Of a stretch of DNA of 26,027 nucleotides, positions 1,121 to 26,027 are shown piece after piece. The stretch's first letter is position 1, and each line of letters begins with the position of its first letter. The position numbers were made by a program, and so were the translations under genes. This DNA is from Takakia lepidozioides (taxonomy: Eukaryota; Plantae; Bryophyta): assembly GCA_030704615.1 (NCBI GenBank), contig JAKLZA010000044.1, forward strand, positions 1 through 26,027, in the 5' to 3' direction. Below the pieces are notes generated by a model. The model ran no database searches. It was not told where the DNA came from and saw only the letters and a list, made by a program, of their open reading frames with translations.

Positions 1121-4100
1121 TTACCGCCCCACACCAGTGGCAACATATATGTTTGATAGCGGCTTATAAGTTGCTGCGTCCTGTGAATCCCCCTTGAGGA
1201 GGGATTTTGCTGCACGTTCTGCTAGCTCTACATTCCCATGTACTCTGCAGGCACCAAGCAAGGCCCCCCAAACCGAAGCATCTGCTTCCATTGGCATTTT
1301 ATTGATAAAATCCTCTGCCTCATTCAATCGCCCCCCACGCCCAAGAAGATCCACCATGCAGCCAAAATGCTCCACTGTAGGACTGAGGCCATAATCTTGA
1401 CTCATGCATGCAAAATAGTGATAGCCTTCATTCACTAGCCCCACATAGCTACATGCACAGAGAAGAGAAACAAAGGTGATACCATCTGGCTTGAACCCTT
1501 CCTGTTGCATTTGATCAAATATTTGGAGGGCTTCTCTAGCACAGCCATGCTGACCATATCCGGCGATCATTGCATTCCATGAGACCACATTTCGTTCAGT
1601 CATACTATCAAACACTTGACGTGCGTCCTTTACGCTCCCACATTTGGCATACATGTCAACAAAGGTATTCTCCAAATTAATATATGAGGGTTCTCCAGAT
1701 TTAATGATGTCAGCATGGACTTCCTTGCCCTTTTCTAGAGCTCCGAGGCTGGCGCACACATTGAGAACACAAATAAATGTGACCTTGTCCGGGGTCATCC
1801 CTACATGTATCATTTGCTCATACATCTCCAAAGCCTCCCTACCACACCCATGCTGAGCATATCCTGCCATCATCACGTTCCACGAGACCACATCTGGTTC
1901 AGCCATATTGTCAAAGACTTCATGTGCATCCTTGACACTCCCGCAATTGGCATACATGTCAGCAAGGGCAGTCTCCAGGATGGTATCTGGCGCTGTTCCA
2001 ACTTTGATGATATCAGCATGGACATCCTTGCCCTTCTCCAGGACGCCTAGGCGCGCACACACATTGAGAATGCAAATGAAAGTGACTTTGTCTGGTGTCA
2101 CCCCTTCCCGTATCATTTGCTCATACATCGTGAAAGCTTCCCTGTCACACCCATGGTGAGCATATCCTGTGATCATTGTGCAGAATGAGACCACATCTCG
2201 TTTAGTCATAGTGTCAAACACTTGACGTGCATCCTTTATGCTCCCACATTTGGCATACATATCAACGAGGGCAGTCTCGAGAACGATATCTTGTGCAATT
2301 CCCGCTTTGACTATGTCACCATGAACCTCTTTGCCCTTTTCCAGGGCTCCTGAGCTGGCACACACATTGAGAGCACAAGTGAACACAATGCTGTCAGGCA
2401 TCACACCTTCCTGCATCAATTGCTTATACATCTCAAAAGCCTCTTCACTATGCCCATGCTGAGCATATCCTGTGATGATCGTGCTCCATGAGACTATATT
2501 TCGTTCAGCCATATTGTCAAAAACTTGACGTGAGTCTTCCATGCTACCACATTTGGCATACATGTTAACGAGAGTATTCTCCAAATTTACATATGACACA
2601 ATTCCAGCTTTGATGATGTCAGCATGGACCTCTTTGCCTTGATCCAGGGCTCCTAGATTGGCGCAGACATTGAGAACACAGAGATACGTCACCCTGTTGG
2701 GTGTCACTTGGTCGGAACGCATTTGCTCGTAGATACTTAAAGCCTCCTTATCAAATCCAAGCTGAGTATATCCAGAGATCATCGTGTTAAATGAGATCTC
2801 ATTTCGGTGAGCAATATTGTCGAACACTTGACAGGCATCCTTCATGCTCCTGCATTTGGCATACATGTCAACAAGGGTATTCTCCAAATTTACATACGGC
2901 GCAATTCCAGCTTTCATGATGTCAGCATGGACCTCTTTCCCCTTTTTGAGGGCTCCTAGGCTGGCACAAGCATTGAGAACACAAATGAATGTGACCCTAT
3001 CAGGTGTCACCCCATCTTGTTGCATTTGATCATAGGTCTCCAAAGCCTCCTTACCACACCCATGTTGAGCATAGCCTGTGATCATGGTGTTCCATGAGAC
3101 CACATTTCGTTGCGCCATATTGTTGAAAACTTGATATGCATTCTTCATGCTCCCACATTTAGCATACATGTCCACAAGGGTATTCCCCACATTTATATGT
3201 AACACAGTTCCAGATTTGATAATTTCAGCATGGACCTCTTGGCCCTTTTCAAGGACTCCTAGGCTGGCACACGCATTGAGAACACAGATGAATGTGACCC
3301 TGTCAGGTGGGACCTGTTCCTGTTGCATTTGCTCGTAGATCTGGAGAGCCTCCCTACCACACCCATGTTGTGCATATCCTGCGAGCATAGCATTCCATGA
3401 GACAACATTTCGTTTAGCCATATTGTCGAACACTTGATGTGCATCCTTCATGCTCTCACATTTGGCATACATGTCTATAAGAGTATTCTCCAGATTTATA
3501 TATGATACAATTCCAGATTTGATGATGTCAGCATGGACCTCTTTGCCCTTTCCCAGAGCTCCTAGGCTGGCACATGCTTTGAGAATGCAAATGAATGTGA
3601 CCTTGTTGGGTGGCACCCCTTTCAGTTCCATTACCTCATAGATCTGGAAAGCCTCTCTACAACACCCATGCTGGACATATCCTGCAACCATGGCATTCCA
3701 TGAAACCACATCTCGAGTAGTCATTTTGTCGAACACTTCATGCGCATCCATCATGCTCCCGCATTTGGCATAAAGGTCAACAAGGGCAGTCTCCAGGATG
3801 ATATCTGGTGCAACTCCAGCTTTGATGATGTTGGCATGGACTTCTTTTCCCTTTTCCAGGGCTCCTAGGCTTGCACATGCATTGAGAACACAAATGAATG
3901 TAACTTTGTCGGGTGTCTCCCCTTCATGTATCATTTGCTCATAGATCTCCAAAGCCTCCCTACCAAATCCATGCTTGGCATATGCTGCTATCATTATAGT
4001 CCATGTAAACACGTTCCGTTCAGGCATTTTGTCAAACACTTGGCGTGAATCTTCCACACTCCCGCACTTGGCATACATGTTCATAAGGGTGTTGAGTAGA

Positions 4101-4414
4101 AAAATATTTGGCTTGAATCCAGTTTGGATAATGTGGTCATGCACCTGCCTTCCCTCTGCTAGCCCTTTCATATCGATGCACTCCTGCAAGACATGGACGT
4201 AGGTCATGGAGCCGACTCGACTGCCTTGTTGATTTAAAATGTGCAGCGCCTCCTTCGGCTGTCCCAACTTACATAGTATCCTCATATCCCTAAAATTGCC
4301 AGAGGAGGTCTGGTTGACTCTGTCTCGTGGTCCTCTAGAAGCAGCGGAGGCACTGGAGGTTTGACTGCTAGTCTGATGTCCAACAAACAACTGTGCCTGA
4401 CTCAACCCTGCCAT
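1121..4414 (-). CDS. PLS-class pentatricopeptide repeat protein (1097 aa) ending in E1/truncated E2; organellar RNA-editing-factor type
   Basis: Intronless ORF with nine YAKCGS-type S motifs at a 101-aa/303-bp period (PLS triplets). Ends in P2-L2-S2 (EHFGCMVDLLGRGG) and E motifs (SVWGALLGACRVHG; AATYKPLSNIY). The Ser/Ala-rich N-terminus is compatible with a transit peptide. Confidence 0.95.
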   Translation of the reverse strand: MAGLSQAQLFVGHQTSSQTSSASAASRGPRDRVNQTSSGNFRDMRILCKLGQPKEALHILNQQGSRVGSMTYVHVLQECIDMKGLAEGRQVHDHIIQTGFKPNIFLLNTLMNMYAKCGSVEDSRQVFDKMPERNVFTWTIMIAAYAKHGFGREALEIYEQMIHEGETPDKVTFICVLNACASLGALEKGKEVHANIIKAGVAPDIILETALVDLYAKCGSMMDAHEVFDKMTTRDVVSWNAMVAGYVQHGCCREAFQIYEVMELKGVPPNKVTFICILKACASLGALGKGKEVHADIIKSGIVSYINLENTLIDMYAKCESMKDAHQVFDNMAKRNVVSWNAMLAGYAQHGCGREALQIYEQMQQEQVPPDRVTFICVLNACASLGVLEKGQEVHAEIIKSGTVLHINVGNTLVDMYAKCGSMKNAYQVFNNMAQRNVVSWNTMITGYAQHGCGKEALETYDQMQQDGVTPDRVTFICVLNACASLGALKKGKEVHADIMKAGIAPYVNLENTLVDMYAKCRSMKDACQVFDNIAHRNEISFNTMISGYTQLGFDKEALSIYEQMRSDQVTPNRVTYLCVLNVCANLGALDQGKEVHADIIKAGIVSYVNLENTLVNMYAKCGSMEDSRQVFDNMAERNIVSWSTIITGYAQHGHSEEAFEMYKQLMQEGVMPDSIVFTCALNVCASSGALEKGKEVHGDIVKAGIAQDIVLETALVDMYAKCGSIKDARQVFDTMTKRDVVSFCTMITGYAHHGCDREAFTMYEQMIREGVTPDKVTFICILNVCARLGVLEKGKDVHADIIKVGTAPDTILETALADMYANCGSVKDAHEVFDNMAEPDVVSWNVMMAGYAQHGCGREALEMYEQMIHVGMTPDKVTFICVLNVCASLGALEKGKEVHADIIKSGEPSYINLENTFVDMYAKCGSVKDARQVFDSMTERNVVSWNAMIAGYGQHGCAREALQIFDQMQQEGFKPDGITFVSLLCACSYVGLVNEGYHYFACMSQDYGLSPTVEHFGCMVDLLGRGGRLNEAEDFINKMPMEADASVWGALLGACRVHGNVELAERAAKSLLKGDSQDAATYKPLSNIYVATGVGR

Positions 4415-5067
4415 CCTGCATGACTGACTCTTGTTACAGACCTTTACACTCTTAACTCATGTACTTCATCCGGGTGGGGGGGGGTTTGGGGGTCCTAGAC
4501 ACCTCAAAAAAAGATCCCTCCATGAGGACACACATTATACTCCCAATTTTAAGGGTCAGGAAACACTCTAATTATCCAATCTCAAAATAAACTAGTACCA
4601 AGTCTCCTTGTTTGAGTTGGAATCCTTGAATCATTGTCAAAACAATACCCCAATAATTCGCAAACTGGGGCTGCATAGTGGACATCCACATTAGAATCAT
4701 CACTAGATTGTGGCTGATGTGGCTCTGCTATCATCCAAGGACGGTTTGACCAGCCCTCAATCCAGAGGACCTCCATTGTGTGCGAAGTCTGGATTTCTTG
4801 GACTTCCCTGTGACAACCACCACCCTGCAGTTGAGCAGCCATAGCAACCTTGCAAAGATCAGGCTACAAGCACCAAAGCTCCAAGCATCTTTCAATTCAC
4901 TCGGTAAGAGCTAACAGGGAGAAAGGCCCTTGTTGCTGAATCTTAATGGTAAAGCATAGGAGGCAATTTGTCTCTCTTTCTCTATTGGAAGCTTATCATC
5001 GATTGCTTAGAGTTTGATATGCCGTGTCGAGGCTATAACCAGAACCAAACATCAGTGCTACGCAGCA

Positions 5068-6856: not shown

Positions 6857-8755
6857 AGACTCTGTTTGTACCTTAGAAGCTGTCTCCATTTGAGGAGATC
6901 CAAATATTGTTGAGGGAATTGTCATCTCCGAGAAGTTTGACCATCACCATTCAGCCCCATCTACAGCTTCGAGCTCTCGATGGGGCACAGAGTGCCAGAT
7001 CCGTCCCAGGACTGGTAATAGGTAGGCTTTCCTACTTTACATGCATGTAGGTGATTCTGTGGTGTGGCAGAAATGCATGTTCATTCTGGCACCACTTTAT
7101 TCTTTCTCGTGGCTTTGAAGACACGTTTAGGCTCTGATAGACTCCTGCCTTAGTGTGGGGAACTTAGCCGCAGATGCAAGTTTCTGCTTGGCTACTTGGT
7201 ACACATTTATTTCGAGATTAAATGTCCACTCATCGATCATTGGACCATCTCCTTGGCATCAAATAAAGAACACTTCAGATTTCATAAAAGGCTGTATGGA
7301 CTACAGTCTAGCAGCAGCATGTAACCATTACTGTGTGTGGGGAACACTTTATAGATGGTCTGCAATGTGTGTTGCTTATTCCAATAGCTTGGGTGCTAAA
7401 ACGTTTTCATTTACCTTCATCAGATTGCAGGACTCTCTATGTTCTAGTCCCTTTTGGATTCATAAAGATTCATCTTGTATATGCCAAGAGATTAACTGCG
7501 GATGAGTGCACATCCCTGTCATTGCTGAGAATCTGAGGGTTTCACAGAACTTCTACACTTGCAAGTGTTGTGAGCCCAGATACTTGAAGAAAACAGGGAA
7601 GCTCACAAGAGTTCATAATACCCTCAGCAACCTCTGAACACGCCAGTGAGGTAAGGTCACTTCTTACAGGCAGATTTGTTATCCAACAGCCTGTCGGAAC
7701 TCTGGGCATTCCACTCTTGTAGACCGCCCTCTGAGTAGGCTCAATGGTCTCTCATAACATCAAAGATGATGCTGCGTCGTGCTTCTCTACTTCTAGTCAA
7801 GCCTTGTACTGCAGTTCTACAGTCAGACATTGTCACTTGATTGTGGTTTGATGTATGTGGAGCAGTTGTAATGCACTGTCAGGGTGAAGTTTCTGTGTGT
7901 TTGCAATGAGGTTACCACATGTAACATTCCCACATCAAGGTCATCAACAAACCAGTATATTTAGATTGACATGACAACCTCTGGGACTTTGACAACCTTT
8001 GGAACTCTGAAATTGTCCATCTTTGGAACATACATGGGATAGTAGCCTATCTGAGCAGACAGTGAGACCAAGTGTAGAAATCAATTTGTGGTGGCCACAC
8101 TCCCATTTGTCTTGGCAATAGAAACACATTGTGACCATGGGAATAAAATCAGTATAATAATTGAATTGAATAGACATCTTTTGGTGGGGAGCTCATAAGA
8201 AGAGATAATCTTCCAGATAAAAATGAGCTTCTGTTGTTCCAGCCACACCACATTCAGATATCTTTCTGCAATGACACCCTGTCCGTAAAATGAACTAGCT
8301 CTGAAAGAGAGCTAGATATAAAGAGCAAGGGCTTTGTAAATGGGTAAGAAAGCACTAGGATGAGACAGTGCCCCGGAACAGTGACCATTAAGTGAAGGGA
8401 GGGTAAACCAGACAGACAGACACTACAAACCTGTTGTAGAGTTACACAACTAACAGTCTGCAGCTTGCACTGAGACAATGTTGACATCCACATGACACAA
8501 TCTTAGCATGGCCATGGTAGGTGACTACAACCTAATAGTGGACATACACAAGCAAAAAATGAATTTACATATGGTAAATGTGAAGCTCCCTCCAAATTGC
8601 CCCCACAGCAACCTGTTATGTACAGTCGGTTTCGAGCAAGAAGAAAATCTTGGGCCAGAGCGCTTCTTGCTATGAGGCAAGAATGCAAGTGACAAGACTG
8701 TCATCCTCTTACATGTACACTAGACGTCGAGAGAGAGTCAGCCAGCCACCCCATA

Positions 8756-15530: not shown

Positions 15531-16261
15531 TTAAGTTACAAAACCAGATTCTCCAATGATATGCTGGCATGCCATGCACCTTTTTGATATGGGCCATGCA
15601 CTACACACAGCCAGGTTCAGAACAATGTCTCTGGTCAAGTAAGGTTGTAACAAGGGCAAGGACCTGTGGATGCAAGCATCTGCAGTCCTTATGTTCGTTA
15701 TGTTGGTGGATGCAAAGAGTCGCATGATGGGCTCCAGTAATACATATACATCATCCTCCAGCCAAGTGGGATCTCTGAACTCAATTGCCCACCGGTACAG
15801 TGGGAGAGCTTGTTCCAGAAACACTTCAATCGATCCATACTCCTATTAGATTTTGCAGGCAGCGGAAACAGACCCAATCGTCTGCTAGGCATGTTGTGTG
15901 CATGATATTTAGAGAGACTTGAACACATACAGAGGTCAATCAAAAACACCAAACGGAAAAGGTGAAGCAAGCAAGCTGCAGCAGCATGGGTCCAACCAAG
16001 GAACAGCCCAGGTGCAGCCTGGTCGAGAAACAGTGACATGGTCATGAAGGATCCTTCGGAAGCTTCATGTGGCGGCGGTCCCGTAGCTGTCCAATCCAAA
16101 CCCAAAACACGATCACAGAAAGAGAACAGTTGAATGTTGTCCAATATTGAGGTGACCAAGTGTCCAGAAGACGGCCAATATTTGTTGCTTGCATACATCA
16201 GCCTCACTGTGCAAATGCCATGCCATGCATCACCCCTCAACAAGCATGATCTAGTCTCCAA
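15531..16261 (-). pseudogene. Unassigned, possibly frameshifted ORF pair
   Basis: Overlapping ORFs 16261-15698 and 15824-15531 join plausibly at DRLKCF/LEQALPLYRW. No family recognised. Confidence 0.25.
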
Positions 16262-19069: not shown

Positions 19070-19545
19070 CACAAGGGGGGCTAATTCCAAGGGGAAAACA
19101 CCAACCGACCAAGATGAATGGATTAAAATGCATGGGGAAAACCTCAAAGGGGAAAACCCCAAGGCCTATCACTCAAGGGGAAAAAATCACACCAAAGAAA
19201 AACCACGGGAAAAAACCACAGGGGTAACCCACCAAAGAAAAACTGCAGAAGGGAAAAAACCACAAGGGGAACCCACCAAAGAAAAACTGCAGAAGGGAAA
19301 AAACCACAAACCACAGAGGGGAAAATCCCACAGTGGAACCCATCAAAGAAAAACCACAGAAGGGAAAAGGAACACACGGGAAAAAACCCCACGGAAAATC
19401 CACGGGGTTTTTTTCCCAAAAGGTTGCAAGGGAAAGCCCACCAAATTCCCTCCGTTGCAAGTTCCTGTGACTTGTTCTTTTCAAGCACTCTAAAAGGGGA
19501 AAAATGTTATTTTTCCTTTAGGGAATGTGCCAAAAGCTCCTTGTG
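19070..19545. mobile_element. Non-autonomous CAC-terminated (CMC/EnSpm-like) element with internal repeat array
   Basis: Termini CACAAGG / CCTTGTG with flanks ACA / ATA (3 bp, one mismatch). The interior is packed with GGAAAAAACCAC-like units and a hairpin at 19378-19417. Confidence 0.5.
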
Positions 19546-19566
19546 ATATATATCAGAAAGGAAGTT

Positions 19567-19973
19567 AGGTGACTTGTTTCCAGTTTGTGACATGGGTGAG
19601 GACCTTAAGGAGGATCGGAAGGGCGTACCTACCGTTGGCACTAGAATAAATTTCACTTAGGGCAGGGAGAAAACCTCTGAATAATAAACAGATGCAAAGC
19701 GGTCAGGTAACTTTTTTCCAGTTTGTGACATGGGTCATGAGGACCTTAAGGAGGACCGGAAGGGCATACCTACCATTGGCACTAGAATCAATTTCAAACT
19801 CAGGGCAGGGAGAAAACCTCTGAAGAATAAACAGATGCAAAGCGGTTAGGTAACTTGTTTCCAGTTTGTGACATGGGTGAGGACCGGAAGGGCGTACCTA
19901 CGGTTGGCACTAGAATCAATTTCAAACTTAGGGCAAGGAGAAACCCTCTGAAGAATAAACAGATGCAAAGCGG
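19567..19973. repeat. Tandem repeat, three units of about 138, 143 and 126 bp
   Basis: Units start at 19567, 19705 and 19848 and share TTTCCAGTTTGTGACATGGGT...TTGGCACTAGAAT...AATAAACAGATGCAAAGCGG. Confidence 0.95.
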
Positions 19974-20430: not shown

Positions 20431-22983
20431 CTGAACTTCAAACTTGACAAGATTCTTTTCAACTCCTGCTCCGCTATCACTGGGCTCGAAACTCAACACT
20501 CATTGCCACCTCCTCGAGGGTCAGCTGTCCAGTGGACAGAGGACACCTTATAGACAGATCCTGCCATGGGCGAATCAGAAAAGCCATCACTTACAAGGCT
20601 TTTCACGCTTTGGGTTGGCACTGGTGCCACCCACCGGCACTTTATATTATAGGCCCCCATCTTCTTCCAGCCAATGTCCAGCTCCCGGAGTGCCTTTAAG
20701 ACCTCTGTCATTATCTCTTTTGGATCGGATTGGGACTGTGATTGATGGTTATATTCACAGACAGCCAAATCCAAAATGAAACACTTAGAAATGATGCTCA
20801 ATTCTTATAAACCAAACAGGCCATAAAGTTTCAACCTCAATTTTTTGGAACTAATATAACAACATGTTGGCCTGATCCACATGGTCCTTACTGGCATGTC
20901 ACCAGGTGTGAGTGATAGTGCACCCCTTGACCAGGATATTGACCACTTCTAGGACAATGACGAAGGATTATGTTATATTACCTTCCCAATTTTGTGGTGA
21001 CGAAAAGTCCAGGCTGTTGGGTGAAACATGGCCATCAAAGTGGCTCTCAGGACTCCCCATAGTGCGGCCATGGTATTACTAACCAACCACCAAGCTTATC
21101 TGCTGGAACCCTACTGTCTCTTAACGGTTACATGGTTCGGGTGTAGATAGGGAAATATTCCATCGCGCAGATAGCGACACTGCCTGTGCTTCAAGCGTGG
21201 GTCTTCAATTGAAATCCTAGACCAATAAATAGAACACCATCAACAAGTACATGAAATACAAGTACACTGGGAGAATCTACCCTTGCATTTGGTAAGTGAG
21301 ATACATGAGACAACGTCAAACGGTTTTAGGTCGACAATTACAGCCTCCTGGAATCAAACTGTCTTGCAGGTTTGGAGAAAACAGAGAGATAGTGGGAGTG
21401 GGAGGATATGAAGGAACCTGAAGACCCAAAGCCCACTTTCGCTCTGCGGCCACCCTATGTTGTAAAAGAGAAGGAGATGGACCCCGCCGATCCATACTAG
21501 CTGTATGCACTAGTACCTTCACTTAGGAAGGTCTCCCCAAGGGAGTTGAGCACATGAAATGCATGGGTAACATGGGGACCAGGTGTTCCTGCATGTCCAT
21601 CCTTCTCAAAACTGACATCCAGCTATCACCATAACCATCAAATTTCTTTAGACCTATCTTCCACTGACTAACATAAACATCATCACCTTCCCAAGGCTCA
21701 CGTAGGCACCCAACAAAACTGCAAAACCTGCCAAAAGCATATACAACCCAGCTTGAAAGGTTGTGTGACATCTCTGAAAGAGTACTACAAATTTTGAAGA
21801 GTCAAGGCAGGACATGTTGATGCAAAAGTTGTGCCAAACTAACAATAACTCGAATGCCCTGTATGCTTAGATTCCCTTTTGTTGCAGTGACCATGTATCA
21901 AGGACAGGCTGTCAGCCTCTTTGACAATAAGATAATTGCAGCCATAGATAGGCACAAGCTACTTACATGCCCCATGCCCATGCTAAATGTCCATAACGAG
22001 TTCCTCATTCAGTTCAACTGCAACTCACCTTGGCTTCTTCAAACTCAGCCCCAAGATAGCCATTAGATAGACGATGCCTGTTATCTAACATTAGATAATA
22101 TGCCACAGTTGCCTGCATCAGGCAAGCTAACTGTCAATGTTCCAACCTTTAATCCCAAAAAGATGCCAGTGCCCACTCGTCTGGTAAACTCCACACTTCA
22201 TACAGATGATCCAACTGCGAGCAAATATGGACCAGCAGACTGACCTGCTCAGGCATAATCAGAAATATACCAGCCTTTTCGACTACATCAGTCAAGCCAT
22301 GGAAATGGAACAACAGATAAAGATAAATCGAGAAATAGACCCTAGACTTAGTTGAGAAGCTAGTACAAGTAGCATGAGGAATCCATGGAAGCTGCTATTG
22401 ACAGGAGAAATATATAATCAAACTCAGATCTCAGTTTTGTACAACACCACAACAATCCACCGACTTGAAGCCATGTTATAAAGCCATGCCTACTGGAAAA
22501 AGTCAGTACATTATGTTGACACGATTAAGTCAGGAGTCAACAAGTTGAGATCGGTCGAACCCTAAAAGCACCACTTCCTCGAGAATGTCTTCATCGATCT
22601 GCACACATATTTCCGCACACGTCAACCACTACACATGTTCAAATTGTTTCTCATAAACCAGAACAAGAATTATGACTTCCACACATAGATAGACATGCAG
22701 GCTCTAGTATCATTTCTTTGCTCACCAGTGTTCTCTTCGAGCACAGATGAAATCAAGTTGATAGTAACTAGCCTGCTATGGATATGTGGACACTAGATGC
22801 AACATCTCAACTTCAGCTACTCTCAGAGAGAGTGTACCTGTTTAGCTTGTTGTATGGTATTAGGAGGAGGATAACGAGGCAAATGAGATTGAAACGAAGG
22901 ATGCTGGCAAACCTCGGGAATAATAATCCGCTTCATCGGGTCCACCAGTAGCATACGTGGAATCAGATCCCTTGCTCCCGGCA
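20431..22983 (-). pseudogene. SnRK1: SnRK1 catalytic subunit (KIN10-like) pseudogene, C-terminal exons
   Basis: Exons 22983-22838 (PGARDLIPRMLLVDPMKR), 22598-about 22510 (IDEDILEEVV, UBA, internal TGA), 22112-22029 (ATVAYYLMLDNR), 21588-21418 (ERKWALGLQ, internal TAA) and 20735-20431 (EIMTEVLKAL...KCRW...VKFEVQ, frameshift). The final exon was not found. Confidence 0.92.
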
Positions 22984-23022
22984 ACGTAAAACACTGGCAA
23001 AAAAAATTTCTTTGTAATTCAA

Positions 23023-23151
23023 GGAGCCTCCTTGGCCGCAAGGTTCCCCCGATTTACGGGAAGTACCCGCTTTTGGAAGGGTCCCCCAATTTGCGGGAAG
23101 TACCTTCCGCGCTTGGAAGGGTCCCCCGATTTGCGGGGGCAAGGAAGCTCC
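23023..23151. repeat. Left subterminal repeat array of the YR element
   Basis: Three AAGG(G/T)TCCCCC(G/A)ATTT(G/A)CGGG units (about 23040, 23077, 23117), bracketed by the inverted pair GGAGCCTCCTTG (23023-23034) / CAAGGAAGCTCC (23140-23151). Confidence 0.85.
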
Positions 23152-23348
23152 ACTACATTTATTTTAGGGTTAATCTTTTGAGAGGAATTTCTTTCAAAAA
23201 AATTCTTTCCAAGTTCCATCAATGTAGACAAAAAGGAACGCTAAGCAGAGAAACTAAAATCAATAGAAGGTATTTTTGGCTGTATTTGTGAGCGCCTCGT
23301 ACTGGCAACATTGTCTACAGTTCTAACTGACTCAGGCACATGGGATAA

Positions 23349-25540
23349 TCAGTTCCCCTTCAATTTCTTAAGAACATCAGCTGCGGTTCCGCTATCAAGC
23401 ACTTGCAGCGTGATGTTGCCGTGAACAACTCCAAAACTAGGTCCAATGTGTGTCACATTTCCTGTTGAGATAACCTGGTTATGACCTCCAAATATTCTCT
23501 CCAATTTATCGCTATTCTGGTTCAAGGCTTTGGTAATAGCATCTTGAGCTTCCTGACTCTCCCAGAATGAGTCGTCGTCGACTTGGGTAACATTACTCTT
23601 ACAAGGAGCCGTAGTAAGAGCCGATGATGAAGTAGAGTAGGATTTCTGGTTAACTTTGTCACTGACAGAGAGAATACCGCTTGAATGAATCGCTGGAACT
23701 TGAGAGTGCATAATATTTGAATTAACTGCTCCAGTAGATCCATTTCCCTGATAATCGCCATACTCAGATTCAATTACCCTTTTGTAATTCTCTTTCTCTT
23801 CTTCAAGAGCTTGTTCATATGAAAGAGGCTTTCCATTGCACACTTCACTAGATACAATTCGTTGCAGGGCACAATCTCTCACCATTTTGTTCATTTGATT
23901 GTATCTGCATACAAAAGAATAATAGCAATATATAAGTGTAAGATATTACCACCACAAAAGCAGGAAACATAGAGATCTAGATAGAATGTAACATACTTGC
24001 CATATGCCTTAGCACTCCTGTGACCTGTAAGCTCCATTCCATGTTCTTGTGGAACATAAGCCTCCTCCATCCGTGTCATTCCAACATCGCGACCAGTCTT
24101 GTTGGTAAGAACTTTGCCGGCTAATTCTGGCAGCTCCCTCATCATCTTGTTCGTGTAGGAGCGCAACGAATTTCTACATACAGGAATCTTCGAGAACCAG
24201 TCATCATCAGTAAACTTCCATTTCTGCCTTGGTGTAAGGAACATAGGGTGCGGCCCTAATTCCTGAGGAGTCCACGTAGGTCGTTTCTTGATCAGCAGTT
24301 TGTAGAGATCAATCACATGTGCATCCTGACAATCAACAGGTTTTCTATGATCTTCCGCACTGCAATGACTGATATCCAGTTGATAATTCTTGGAGATGCC
24401 CTGGCAAAACCTACAAAGAAAGTACAAAATGTCAAACCAATATAACTGTGAAGACCTGTACTTTGACTAAAAAGCATGTTAACATAATGGAATTCATGCA
24501 CTGATCATTGTATGTTGTGGCAAAACATGCAAAGAAAATACAAGATGTCAAGCCAACGTAAATCTGAAGGTATTTCCAAAAAGCATGAATTAACATAATG
24601 CAATTCGTGCACTCACCGCAGAACAACTCCCAACCGCGTCTCAACTAGAGTGAAATCCTCTTCGTCCACTTTGCGAAGCTCAGCGGAAGCTCTTACGAAG
24701 AAATTTCGAGTACACATGTAGCTAAACCGCATATTGAGACCAGATGGTGAGTCAGGCTGACAAAGTTTTTGGCTCAACATAAGGATTTCTTCCTGCTTAG
24801 TTAGCACATCGTTTTTTTTAACAACGCGTCCCAAACCTGCATTGCATGAGCGACGAACAGCCTTGTCCGCGGCCAGTTTCACTTGGCATATCTCGGATCA
24901 TTCATAATGTTGAAGGTGCAAGCTGGCGCTTCTGCAGACTCAACTATCCGCATCTCGCAACGTGCTCTGGGTACAAAGAGCCATCGCTCTTAGTCACCTC
25001 TAATATGAATAATGTTAGCATGTCTACCAACAATTTCACATCAGTTTCTGACAGGTCCGCCATGGATTTTTCTGTCGAGTAACCTTTATGCTCCCTCCAG
25101 CAGTCGAATGCTCGACGGGCCCATAACTCACCGTGCCTATTGCGACGCTGACCTCCTCCCAACACATTCTGCAGCTCACTCTCGTCAACCTCTCGGAAGC
25201 GCCTAACCAAATTAACATCACTTCTAGGCTGCGTTGAAGTACATGCTTGCGGATCCTTGTCATCACCGTTATTAGGCACATCATAATCATCATCAGGTAA
25301 TCTTCGACAAGAGGAATACACCTAACGACCTCAGAATTAGTGCTGGCTTCTACAAAATCTAGACTCCAAACCTGACTCATATGGTTGAGAGCTACAAGTA
25401 AGAGTAACTTCAGCTTCAGATATGATATCGTCAAAAGCTTGAGAGATATCAAGATCAAATGCAACAGAAGCATGATGTTCAACATGAATTCCCAAACAAA
25501 TTTTCTTCAGCGATGAATCTTGAAAATCCTCGACACTCAT
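23349..25540 (-). pseudogene. Tyrosine recombinase of DUF3504/Crypton type, intron-containing, frameshifted in its 5' half
   Basis: Motifs WARRAFDCW, FILEVTKSDGSLYP, GLGRVVKKNDVLTKQEE, PDSPSGL, NFFVRASAELR (catalytic R), SKN, KRP, TNKTGR (HxxR box) and TGHRSAKAYGK|Y (H and nucleophile Y). In-phase GT-AG introns at 24616-24411 and 23996-23905. Frame breaks near 25.35 kb, 24.96 kb and 24882. The start codon (25540) is tentative. Confidence 0.85.
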
Positions 25541-25840
25541 TGTTTACCAAAACGGCATGAAATAATTGCAACATGTCAATCAACCATTCTACGCCTGACG
25601 ACGCCATGTCGAAGATGAGGCACATATGATAATAGAATCCAAATTAAAAGCAATGCAAGGACGAGATCAGTATCTGCACGGGGACCTGACGTCTTCATCG
25701 CGACTGAGTGTAGAGAACACATGTAGGTTTAAAATAAGAAAGGGTGGAAAACGTGTCAACCCTAGAAAGAAATGGCCATCGAAAAGATGGCAGACTGGAA
25801 AGAAATGAGCGGGAAAGAAAAATTTCCCAGTTTTTCACGT

Positions 25841-25959
25841 TTGGGAAGGGTTGTTCCCACGGCCCTTCCTGAATTTTCGAGCACCCGGAACTCGGGCTCC
25901 GCCCTCGTTGCCGGTGCTCTCAAATTCAGGAAGGGCCTTGGGAACGACCCCTTCCCTAA
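25841..25959. repeat. About 120-bp foldback at the right terminus of the YR element
   Basis: Arms 25843-25876 and 25922-25956 (perfect 16-bp core GGCCCTTCCTGAATTT; two mismatches and one indel overall). Inner stems GAGCACC/GGTGCTC and GGGC-tcc-GCCC. Confidence 0.95.
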
Positions 25960-25960
25960 T

Positions 25961-25991
25961 ACAAATGGCTTGGTAGCGTGTAAATGCCACC
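25961..25991 (-). pseudogene. SnRK1: 5' part of the interrupted SnRK1 exon (GGIYTLPSHL)
   Basis: Acceptor TTTGTGCAG (26000-25992), then GGT GGC ATT TAC ACG CTA CCA AGC CAT TTG T. The rest of the kinase domain would lie beyond the window. Confidence 0.9.
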
Positions 25992-26027
25992 CTGCACAAA
26001 CAGGCACCCGCCATCTTCACCCCGCCA

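Follow-up and report, generated by a model that had tools for sequence, protein, structure and literature searches.

A CryptonA-like transposon of Takakia lepidozioides with a conserved terminal hairpin and an internal segment complementary to its far end

The CryptonA transposons described by Kojima and Jurka in 2011 (PMC3212892) and the fungal Glomhoppers (PMC13465315) carry, according to the portions of these reports on which we drew, a single DUF3504-type recombinase gene with introns, lack reverse transcriptase and long terminal repeats, and have abundant short derivatives. In the same portions, their ends are described as lacking terminal repeats or as poorly defined, no hairpin or internal copy of the junction is mentioned, and the hosts mentioned comprise animals, fungi, stramenopiles, and a green alga, with land plants not among them. 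DIRS1-type retroelements likewise have a tyrosine recombinase and make no target duplication, and near one end they carry an internal stretch that can pair with the two termini over the junction of the circle; the available sections of PMC7192593 and PMC3266345 describe these regions as exact complements. The attC site of integron cassettes is defined by a stem, unpaired bases, and a variable tip (PMC7439510 and PMC8946536, in part), and IS608, a member of the IS200/IS605 elements, has a single-stranded circle intermediate (PMC3201880, in part).

The stretch of DNA analyzed here (the window) comprises 26,027 nucleotides of contig JAKLZA010000044.1 in the Takakia lepidozioides assembly GCA_030704615.1. 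Contigs of four public runs (X1 and X4, which represent one sample, X5, and X6, which comes from a different study) were compared with positions 22800-26027. In contigs of X1, X4, and X6, position 22982 or 22959 is joined to 25961 with the letters of an empty site between them, which bears out the termini guessed in the first-pass annotation of this locus. Removing 2977 bases restores the frame of an interrupted kinase exon; other joins also restore a frame, but the removal of 22986-25962 yields the observed empty site, and the ends of the element are thus fixed by the empty sites together with the restored frame (Table 1). The top PDB sequence matches of the host exon are SNF1-like kinases (E 3.7e-6). 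This kinase copy (22530-22983 plus 25963-26027, minus strand) has a 9-base gap relative to an X6 contig and a stop in its next exon, and several empty paralogous sites exist, so that, judging from these sequences, it is likely a decayed duplicate. Elsewhere in the window are a PLS-class PPR frame of 1111 aa with 303-bp (101-aa) repeats and an E motif at its end (1121-4456, minus strand), which identifies a land-plant host, tandem arrays of 15, 44, and 128 bp (19134-19973), and a weak DUF72 match under its cutoff (15534-15842, minus strand, E 8.7e-4).

Table 1. Positions of the element, its parts, and the interrupted host exon in the window
Feature	Position	Strand	Remarks	Basis
CryptonA-like DNA transposon	22986..25962	.	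2977 bp, in kinase exon	Empty-site joints, host frame
Interrupted host exon, 3' part	22848..22983	-	SNF1/AMPK-like (SnRK1-type) kinase	PDB sequence match, frame
Interrupted host exon, 5' part	25963..26027	-		Frame; X6 contig 25 spans empty site
Left terminus	22985..23006	+	Pairs with 25818-25839; other copies diverge from flank here	
Subterminal tandem array	23040..23137	+	2.5 copies of 40 bp, carrying GGAAGGG	
Last recombinase exon	23349..23904	-	Catalytic Tyr codon completed by splicing; C-terminal region then without known family	
GT-AG intron splitting codons at catalytic Tyr	23905..23996	-	Same position in relatives	
Exon with DUF3504-like catalytic core	23997..24410	-	K-x-x-R and G-H-R-S motifs	
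GT-AG intron with internal duplication of ~110 bp	24411..24616	-	Without counterpart in relatives	
Exon with first catalytic Arg region	24617..24897	-	Atlas DUF3504 clusters at 0.97	
5' part of recombinase gene	24898..25558	-	Frameshifts and stops in window copy (three-frame translation)	
Internal segment complementary to left terminus	25818..25840	+	Counterpart kept in 5 relative groups	
Terminal hairpin	25841..25959	+	Arms about 25841-25897 and 25901-25959; variable tip	
Two unpaired bases beside joint in folded circle junction	25960..25961 (about)	+	Best offset is 2	

The base common to both junctions is a C, at 22985 and at 25962. The dinucleotide AC that had been proposed for both ends holds for the insertion in the window, whereas other insertions share only the one C: among the four loose ends listed, a C always precedes the first G at the left flank, the base before that C is C, C, C, or T, and at least one other right flank follows the same terminal C. 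Because the A on the left flank varies among insertions, the family-wide base is one C rather than AC, and the core reads TTTAC|G on the gene strand. The direct repeats of 4 to 6 bp of the CryptonF/S model are absent, two bases being common in this insertion and one family-wide; this does not exclude CryptonA, since such repeats were not found in animal CryptonA either, according to the part of PMC3212892 consulted. At least three short derivatives lacking the gene are present, with the right part resuming at 25807, 25815, or 25820; all three resumption points listed lie just outside the internal segment and none within it. The commonest derivative (23138 to 25807) is also found in X5 and X6, and its joint has a depth of 627 in X1 and 864 in X4 versus 92 to 300 in interior bins of X4, where depth is no copy number. 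Empty sites, different flanks, and deletion derivatives, all features of mobility, are therefore present. The motif GGAAGGG occurs twice at the left end and four times at the right end, in the hairpin, and the sites in the subterminal array are possible protein-binding sites, as far as a repeated motif suggests.

The element consists of one spliced minus-strand gene with two GT-AG introns, and the spliced frame, running from 24790 to the stop codon, stays open over 381 aa. The Arg, second Arg, His, and Tyr of an R-H-R-Y tetrad stand at the expected motif places, with Lys at the His of H-x-x-R, the places being assigned by motif. The core exon matches PF12012 with an E value of 1.2e-4 and 22.7 bits, below the curated cutoff of 29.7, and its atlas neighbors include a phage-integrase cluster; a single-sequence structure model of the recombinase has a pLDDT of 40. 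The intron at the catalytic Tyr is seen in all eight relative loci inspected by eye, where the frame breaks after the same codon and a later AG is followed by Y-N codons. The other intron may be a recent gain, because the relatives lack it; a duplication of ~110 bp (24402-24613) overlaps this intron and its acceptor. No Pfam family of reverse transcriptases or DDE transposases was matched in the scanned frames of the element, and its frames show no gag, reverse transcriptase, or RNase H. The reverse transcriptase and DDE families are also absent from all 43 longer frames of 18 relative loci, a weak result in decayed copies. The layout is, as the first-pass annotation proposed, that of a DIRS-type internal complementary region in an element without reverse transcriptase.

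On the basis of domain matches and element features, the element is best filed as CryptonA-like and not as DIRS. It shares with CryptonA the gene type, the introns, the missing reverse transcriptase and long terminal repeats, and the abundant short derivatives, and it differs from the CryptonA descriptions available to us in having ends defined to the base and a conserved end structure. With DIRS1-type elements (PMC7192593, PMC3266345, in part) it has in common the internal stretch near one end, the recombinase type, and the missing target duplication. Unlike them, it has no gag, reverse transcriptase, RNase H, or inverted terminal repeats, its complementarity is imperfect (3 mismatches in 17) with a conserved bulge, its core is one base instead of three, and its gene is antisense to the DIRS orientation and keeps its introns. 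The joined ends also differ from the usual tyrosine-recombinase site, given in the consulted part of PMC3212892 as two inverted arms around a core of 6 to 8 bp, in that the double-stranded joint has no dyad symmetry (5/21).

The internal segment was first recognized by an ungapped match of 15 of 18 bases between 25823-25840 and the reverse complement of 22984-23001, which is correct and is the best of its kind in the window, the next best being 13. With the ends fixed, the left end and 25823-25839 agree at 14 of 17 positions, a value that only 9 of 200,000 shuffles of the left end reached at this fixed position, well clear of the shuffled-sequence null, and that was equalled at the expected place by 1 of 51,934 17-mers of the window. 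The position of the match matters, because when the whole window is searched freely, 42 of 3000 random queries reach 15 of 18 somewhere in it. At the left end of other copies, AAATTTT replaces the A-run at 22999-23006, and the match, compared by hand, is five bases longer and extends to 25818. The 54-base stretch regarded at first as a copy of the junction is thus mostly hairpin arm, and its informative part is the 17 to 22 bases that match the far end. The three mismatches persist, as 25842 and 25852 are the sole positions at which X5 contig 24 departs from the window, and X6 contig 26 has four differences that, as far as counts show, are compatible with the A-run. A joint with an AA core, taken from the best ungapped fit (23/27), was ruled out by the empty sites. 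The best inverted alignment of the two ends was equalled by 61 of 300 shuffles, which gives no sign of inverted terminal repeats, and the direct likeness between the left subterminal repeats and the right arm is not significant (19/300). A local hairpin of 6 bp at 25811-25828 covers some of the left-matching segment while the element is integrated and is displaced in the predicted fold of the circle.

Folded as DNA, the terminal hairpin has a predicted energy of -53.7 kcal/mol and a z score of -10.56, none of 200 shuffles being equally stable, and its tip differs among copies. When the two ends are joined in silico, the circle junction is predicted to fold as a single stem, with energies of -58.4 and -63.6 kcal/mol for the two strands. 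Shuffling the left end gives -53.2 and -55.1 kcal/mol, and none of 200 shuffles is as stable as the true junction; on the top strand, 1 or a few of 500 random genomic 30-mers equal the true left end in fold stability (minimum, -60.4). As had been claimed, the rest of 25823-25876 pairs with the right terminus, but the pairing is not contiguous across the joint, where two bases stay unpaired. The listed common variants (25842, 25852, 25948, and 23002-23006) lengthen the pairing, and the majority variants, if they occur together, would make the predicted fold of the circle ~9 kcal/mol more stable on either strand. Each arm (25843-25871 and 25929-25955) is itself a small inverted repeat, GGAAGGG ... 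CCCTTCC, which is also seen in relatives and permits an alternative fold. A search of Rfam returned only a chance match to a microRNA precursor under its threshold. A telomere-resolvase site was considered for the palindrome and rejected by inference, as its center is the variable part. Neither a circle junction running from the right end back to the left end nor a strand-change joint is among the 12 contig joints listed, and contigs drop rare forms.

A metagenome scan yielded 52 relative loci with 26 to 56% identity in 16 groups, mostly one and the same old insertion shared by related hosts, and genes of plants (PsbP, NB-ARC) lie close by. The copies are decayed and contain many stops. No relatives were found in viral contigs, prokaryote genomes, phages, or PDB sequences, and an exact 24-base search of metagenomes gave no match. 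A blind hairpin scan detected the layout in the window and in none of the 52 loci; arms and segments in the relatives were located by aligning shared element ends, followed by profile searches seeded by eye. Both hairpin arms were found in six groups (L018, L003, L009, L049, L036, and L030), and the internal segment together with the far end was found in five (L016, L042/L011, L003, L005 with L006, and L030), the two parts being taken from different loci of the group in groups 2 and 3. The other 9 of the 16 groups have no testable pair, some contigs being too short: an internal remnant only was found in group 1, a far end only in group 6, a 5' arm only in group 11, and nothing in groups 4, 5, 8, 10, 14, and 15.

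With the window included, the pairing of each set's own arms was equalled in 2 of 5040 permutations and that of its own far ends in 4 of 720, counts that are not clean probabilities, as the sequences are related. A two-base offset at the joint is the best in all seven sets, window included, despite differing arm sequences, with 11 to 13 of 14 matches versus at most 9 for other offsets. Among the windows of its own locus, the true far end ranks 1 of 8411, 1 of 10,406, 2 of 5125, 1 of 7869, and 11 of 10,396 as the partner of the internal segment, and 16 of 6007 for the decayed A-run 20-mer of the Takakia window; the segment thus tracks its own far end over a distance of 3 to 6 kb. In the arms, 21 columns have at least two pair types (7/720 permutations), and 28 of 44 pairs changed on both sides across five sequences. 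For the far ends, the paired-cell count exceeds permutations (84 of 120 cells, 5/720), and changes on both sides do not, with 9 columns (84/720) and 4 transversion columns (156/720). Over the full 21 bases, the own partner is the strict best in only two of six rows, versus four to five of six in the variable part, and the 3' arm of L030 is poorly paired. Conversion between inverted repeats can produce co-variation of arms without function. In diverged relatives, the segment and both ends are kept and co-vary, by arms and far ends measured against permutations.

Several relatives show individual features. In L030 (3365-3600, minus strand), a gene-less relative of 236 bp with a 5' arm, a junction copy, and a far end is nested upstream of a larger recombinase copy. 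In L002/L003 (about 1340-2310), an insertion of ~830 bp in the loop separates the arms, and the repeat also occurs in several other loci. In L042 (about 2186-2250), a deletion between repeated motifs reduced the hairpin to a short stem and left the junction copy in place. L049 has a second hairpin of 110 bp (about 8535-8647) with GGAAGG arms and weak likeness to the family profile (E 0.24-0.97), which is perhaps another element. At the stem top, the tandem mismatch of L018 (167-295) and L030 is on the opposite strand relative to the window, L003, L009, L049, and L036; read from these alignments, the hairpin tip of the two groups has been inverted while the joint has not, and the mismatch provides no strand cue, because it is flipped in two groups.

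The stretch is real and conserved and is unexplained by the literature searched. We consider it probable that the junction segment is an end structure and that the junction of the ends is recombined as a folded strand in the manner of attC. One strand of the joined ends is predicted to fold on the segment as a single long stem from which two bases bulge out at the joint, and this bulged joint would be where the recombinase likely cuts and inserts. If the DNA is single-stranded or extruded as a cruciform, the internal segment would hold the left and right ends side by side, and one strand exchange would then release a circle. In the circle, the junction would lie within the stem and behave as the attC site of an integron does, with exchange of a single strand with the target next to a C:G pair, and replication would resolve the product, so that no matching core of 4 to 6 bp would be needed. 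The predicted folds place the crossover point inside the stem of one circle strand. The conserved pair of unpaired bases (7/7), the free stem sequence, and the differing tips are attC-like features. Of the three readings first suggested for the arrangement, a splint, in which the internal strand physically pairs with the two ends, is supported by the conservation and co-variation in relatives. A terminal inverted repeat pair with an additional hairpin is a descriptive label that might stand for protein-binding sites; no copy ending at 25840 is among the 20 loose ends listed.

By analogy, the attC site of integron cassettes is a closer working counterpart than the DIRS region. In a cassette, an imperfect palindrome lies at one end, and its outer pairing partner comes from the other end once the cassette is circular. 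Other features of attC (PMC7439510, PMC8946536) are conserved unpaired bases, a free stem sequence, a variable tip, a tyrosine recombinase, and a very short common core, all as seen here, where recombination of a single strand is a prediction from folds. Unlike attC, the window element encodes its own, unrelated DUF3504-like recombinase, has no attI platform or array, pairs 17 to 22 far-end bases instead of ~6, and has no RYYYAAC box as such. The enzyme type is also that of bacterial elements in which a single strand is copied out to give a circle; in the partial account available, these elements differ in having four genes and a 6-bp crossover, with no imperfect inverted repeat at their sites. 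The guides of IS200/IS605 elements are four bases. As predicted for the element in the window, a sequence at the foot of a subterminal hairpin pairs with the cleavage site in IS608 (PMC3201880, in part), but these elements have an HUH transposase and hairpins at both ends, whereas the window element has a tyrosine recombinase and one long hairpin. In the literature searched, the main text of open-access papers, we found no description of Cryptons with an attC-like site or an internal copy of the junction, and the same texts (including PMC3212892, PMC13465315, PMC5753468, PMC9345347, and PMC11630846) yielded no report of CryptonA in land plants.

Alternatively, the internal segment might be a second duplex binding site for a protein and the hairpin an array of motifs kept alike by conversion, with folding of the strand incidental. 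The segment would then repeat the left end asymmetrically, in inverted form and at a subterminal position, which agrees with the occurrence of GGAAGGG at both ends (2 left, 4 right) and with tolerated mismatches between segment and left end. Co-variation by family would also be expected of sites bound by one enzyme, and the nonsignificant both-side changes of the far ends fit this reading as well. However, it leaves unexplained why the segment abuts the foot of the hairpin at a fixed two-base offset in all seven sets, why the complementary arms are 30 to 40 bp long and family specific, and why the core is one base, and we regard it as unlikely.

Two further explanations borrow from the DIRS cycle. 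A segment that acts as a DNA repair template, from which ends trimmed at excision are rebuilt by copying the internal strand, would follow the DIRS model without RNA; the topology is the same as that of the DIRS region (PMC7192593, in part), and co-variation of the far ends would be expected if one were occasionally copied from the other. Copying would nevertheless erase the three mismatches that persist in the window's family and the two extra bases found in all sets, which makes this explanation improbable. A shade less probable still is a DIRS-like retroelement that has lost gag and pol and moved through RNA by means of another element's reverse transcriptase. The available part of PMC7192593 reports that the DIRS reverse transcriptase acts in trans, some X6 contigs (RNA by automatic guess) carry the short derivative, and an antisense genomic RNA would escape the argument from introns. 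Opposed to this are the retention of the catalytic-Tyr intron by the window copy and by all eight relatives inspected, the lack of any listed joint that skips either intron in DNA runs, the missing inverted terminal repeats (see the shuffles above), and a DUF3504-like enzyme. The DIRS function, in which ends are rebuilt by copying the internal region, is unlikely here because DIRS regions are exact complements, whereas three mismatches and a bulge are fixed in this element; fixed mismatches and an ancient intron together speak against RNA-mediated copying of the DIRS kind.

An inverted recombination site able to flip the terminal 120 bp, also raised in the first-pass annotation and read here as a switch, is very improbable even though the segment resembles the joint and the hairpin tip has two orientations among relatives, since no strand-change joint is listed, a core flip would move the two extra bases inside whereas they are terminal in 7/7 sets and internal in none, and the flipped piece is nearly palindromic, so that little would change.

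The favored reading, a junction recombined as a folded strand, bears on how Cryptons move. Their movement has been an untested circle model since the first description, and CryptonA ends have been described as lacking features. A folded junction that is conserved together with its fixed bulge provides a precise substrate and mutations for testing the Crypton mechanism; it would also explain the missing core of 4 to 6 bp and offers a rule for finding the ends of CryptonA elements. Tentatively, and with somewhat more doubt than confidence, we suggest that CryptonA elements across plants and animals are eukaryotic tyrosine-recombinase transposons acting on single strands, with a junction site that assembles itself, is defined by its structure, and is the eukaryotic counterpart of attC, and that the DIRS region descends from it after the capture of gag and pol. 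The finding would extend CryptonA to land plants and connect the end structure of DIRS with a DNA-only ancestor. If the proposal is true, the enzyme, a eukaryotic recombinase guided by structure and requiring a single matching base in its target, would be of interest as a tool.
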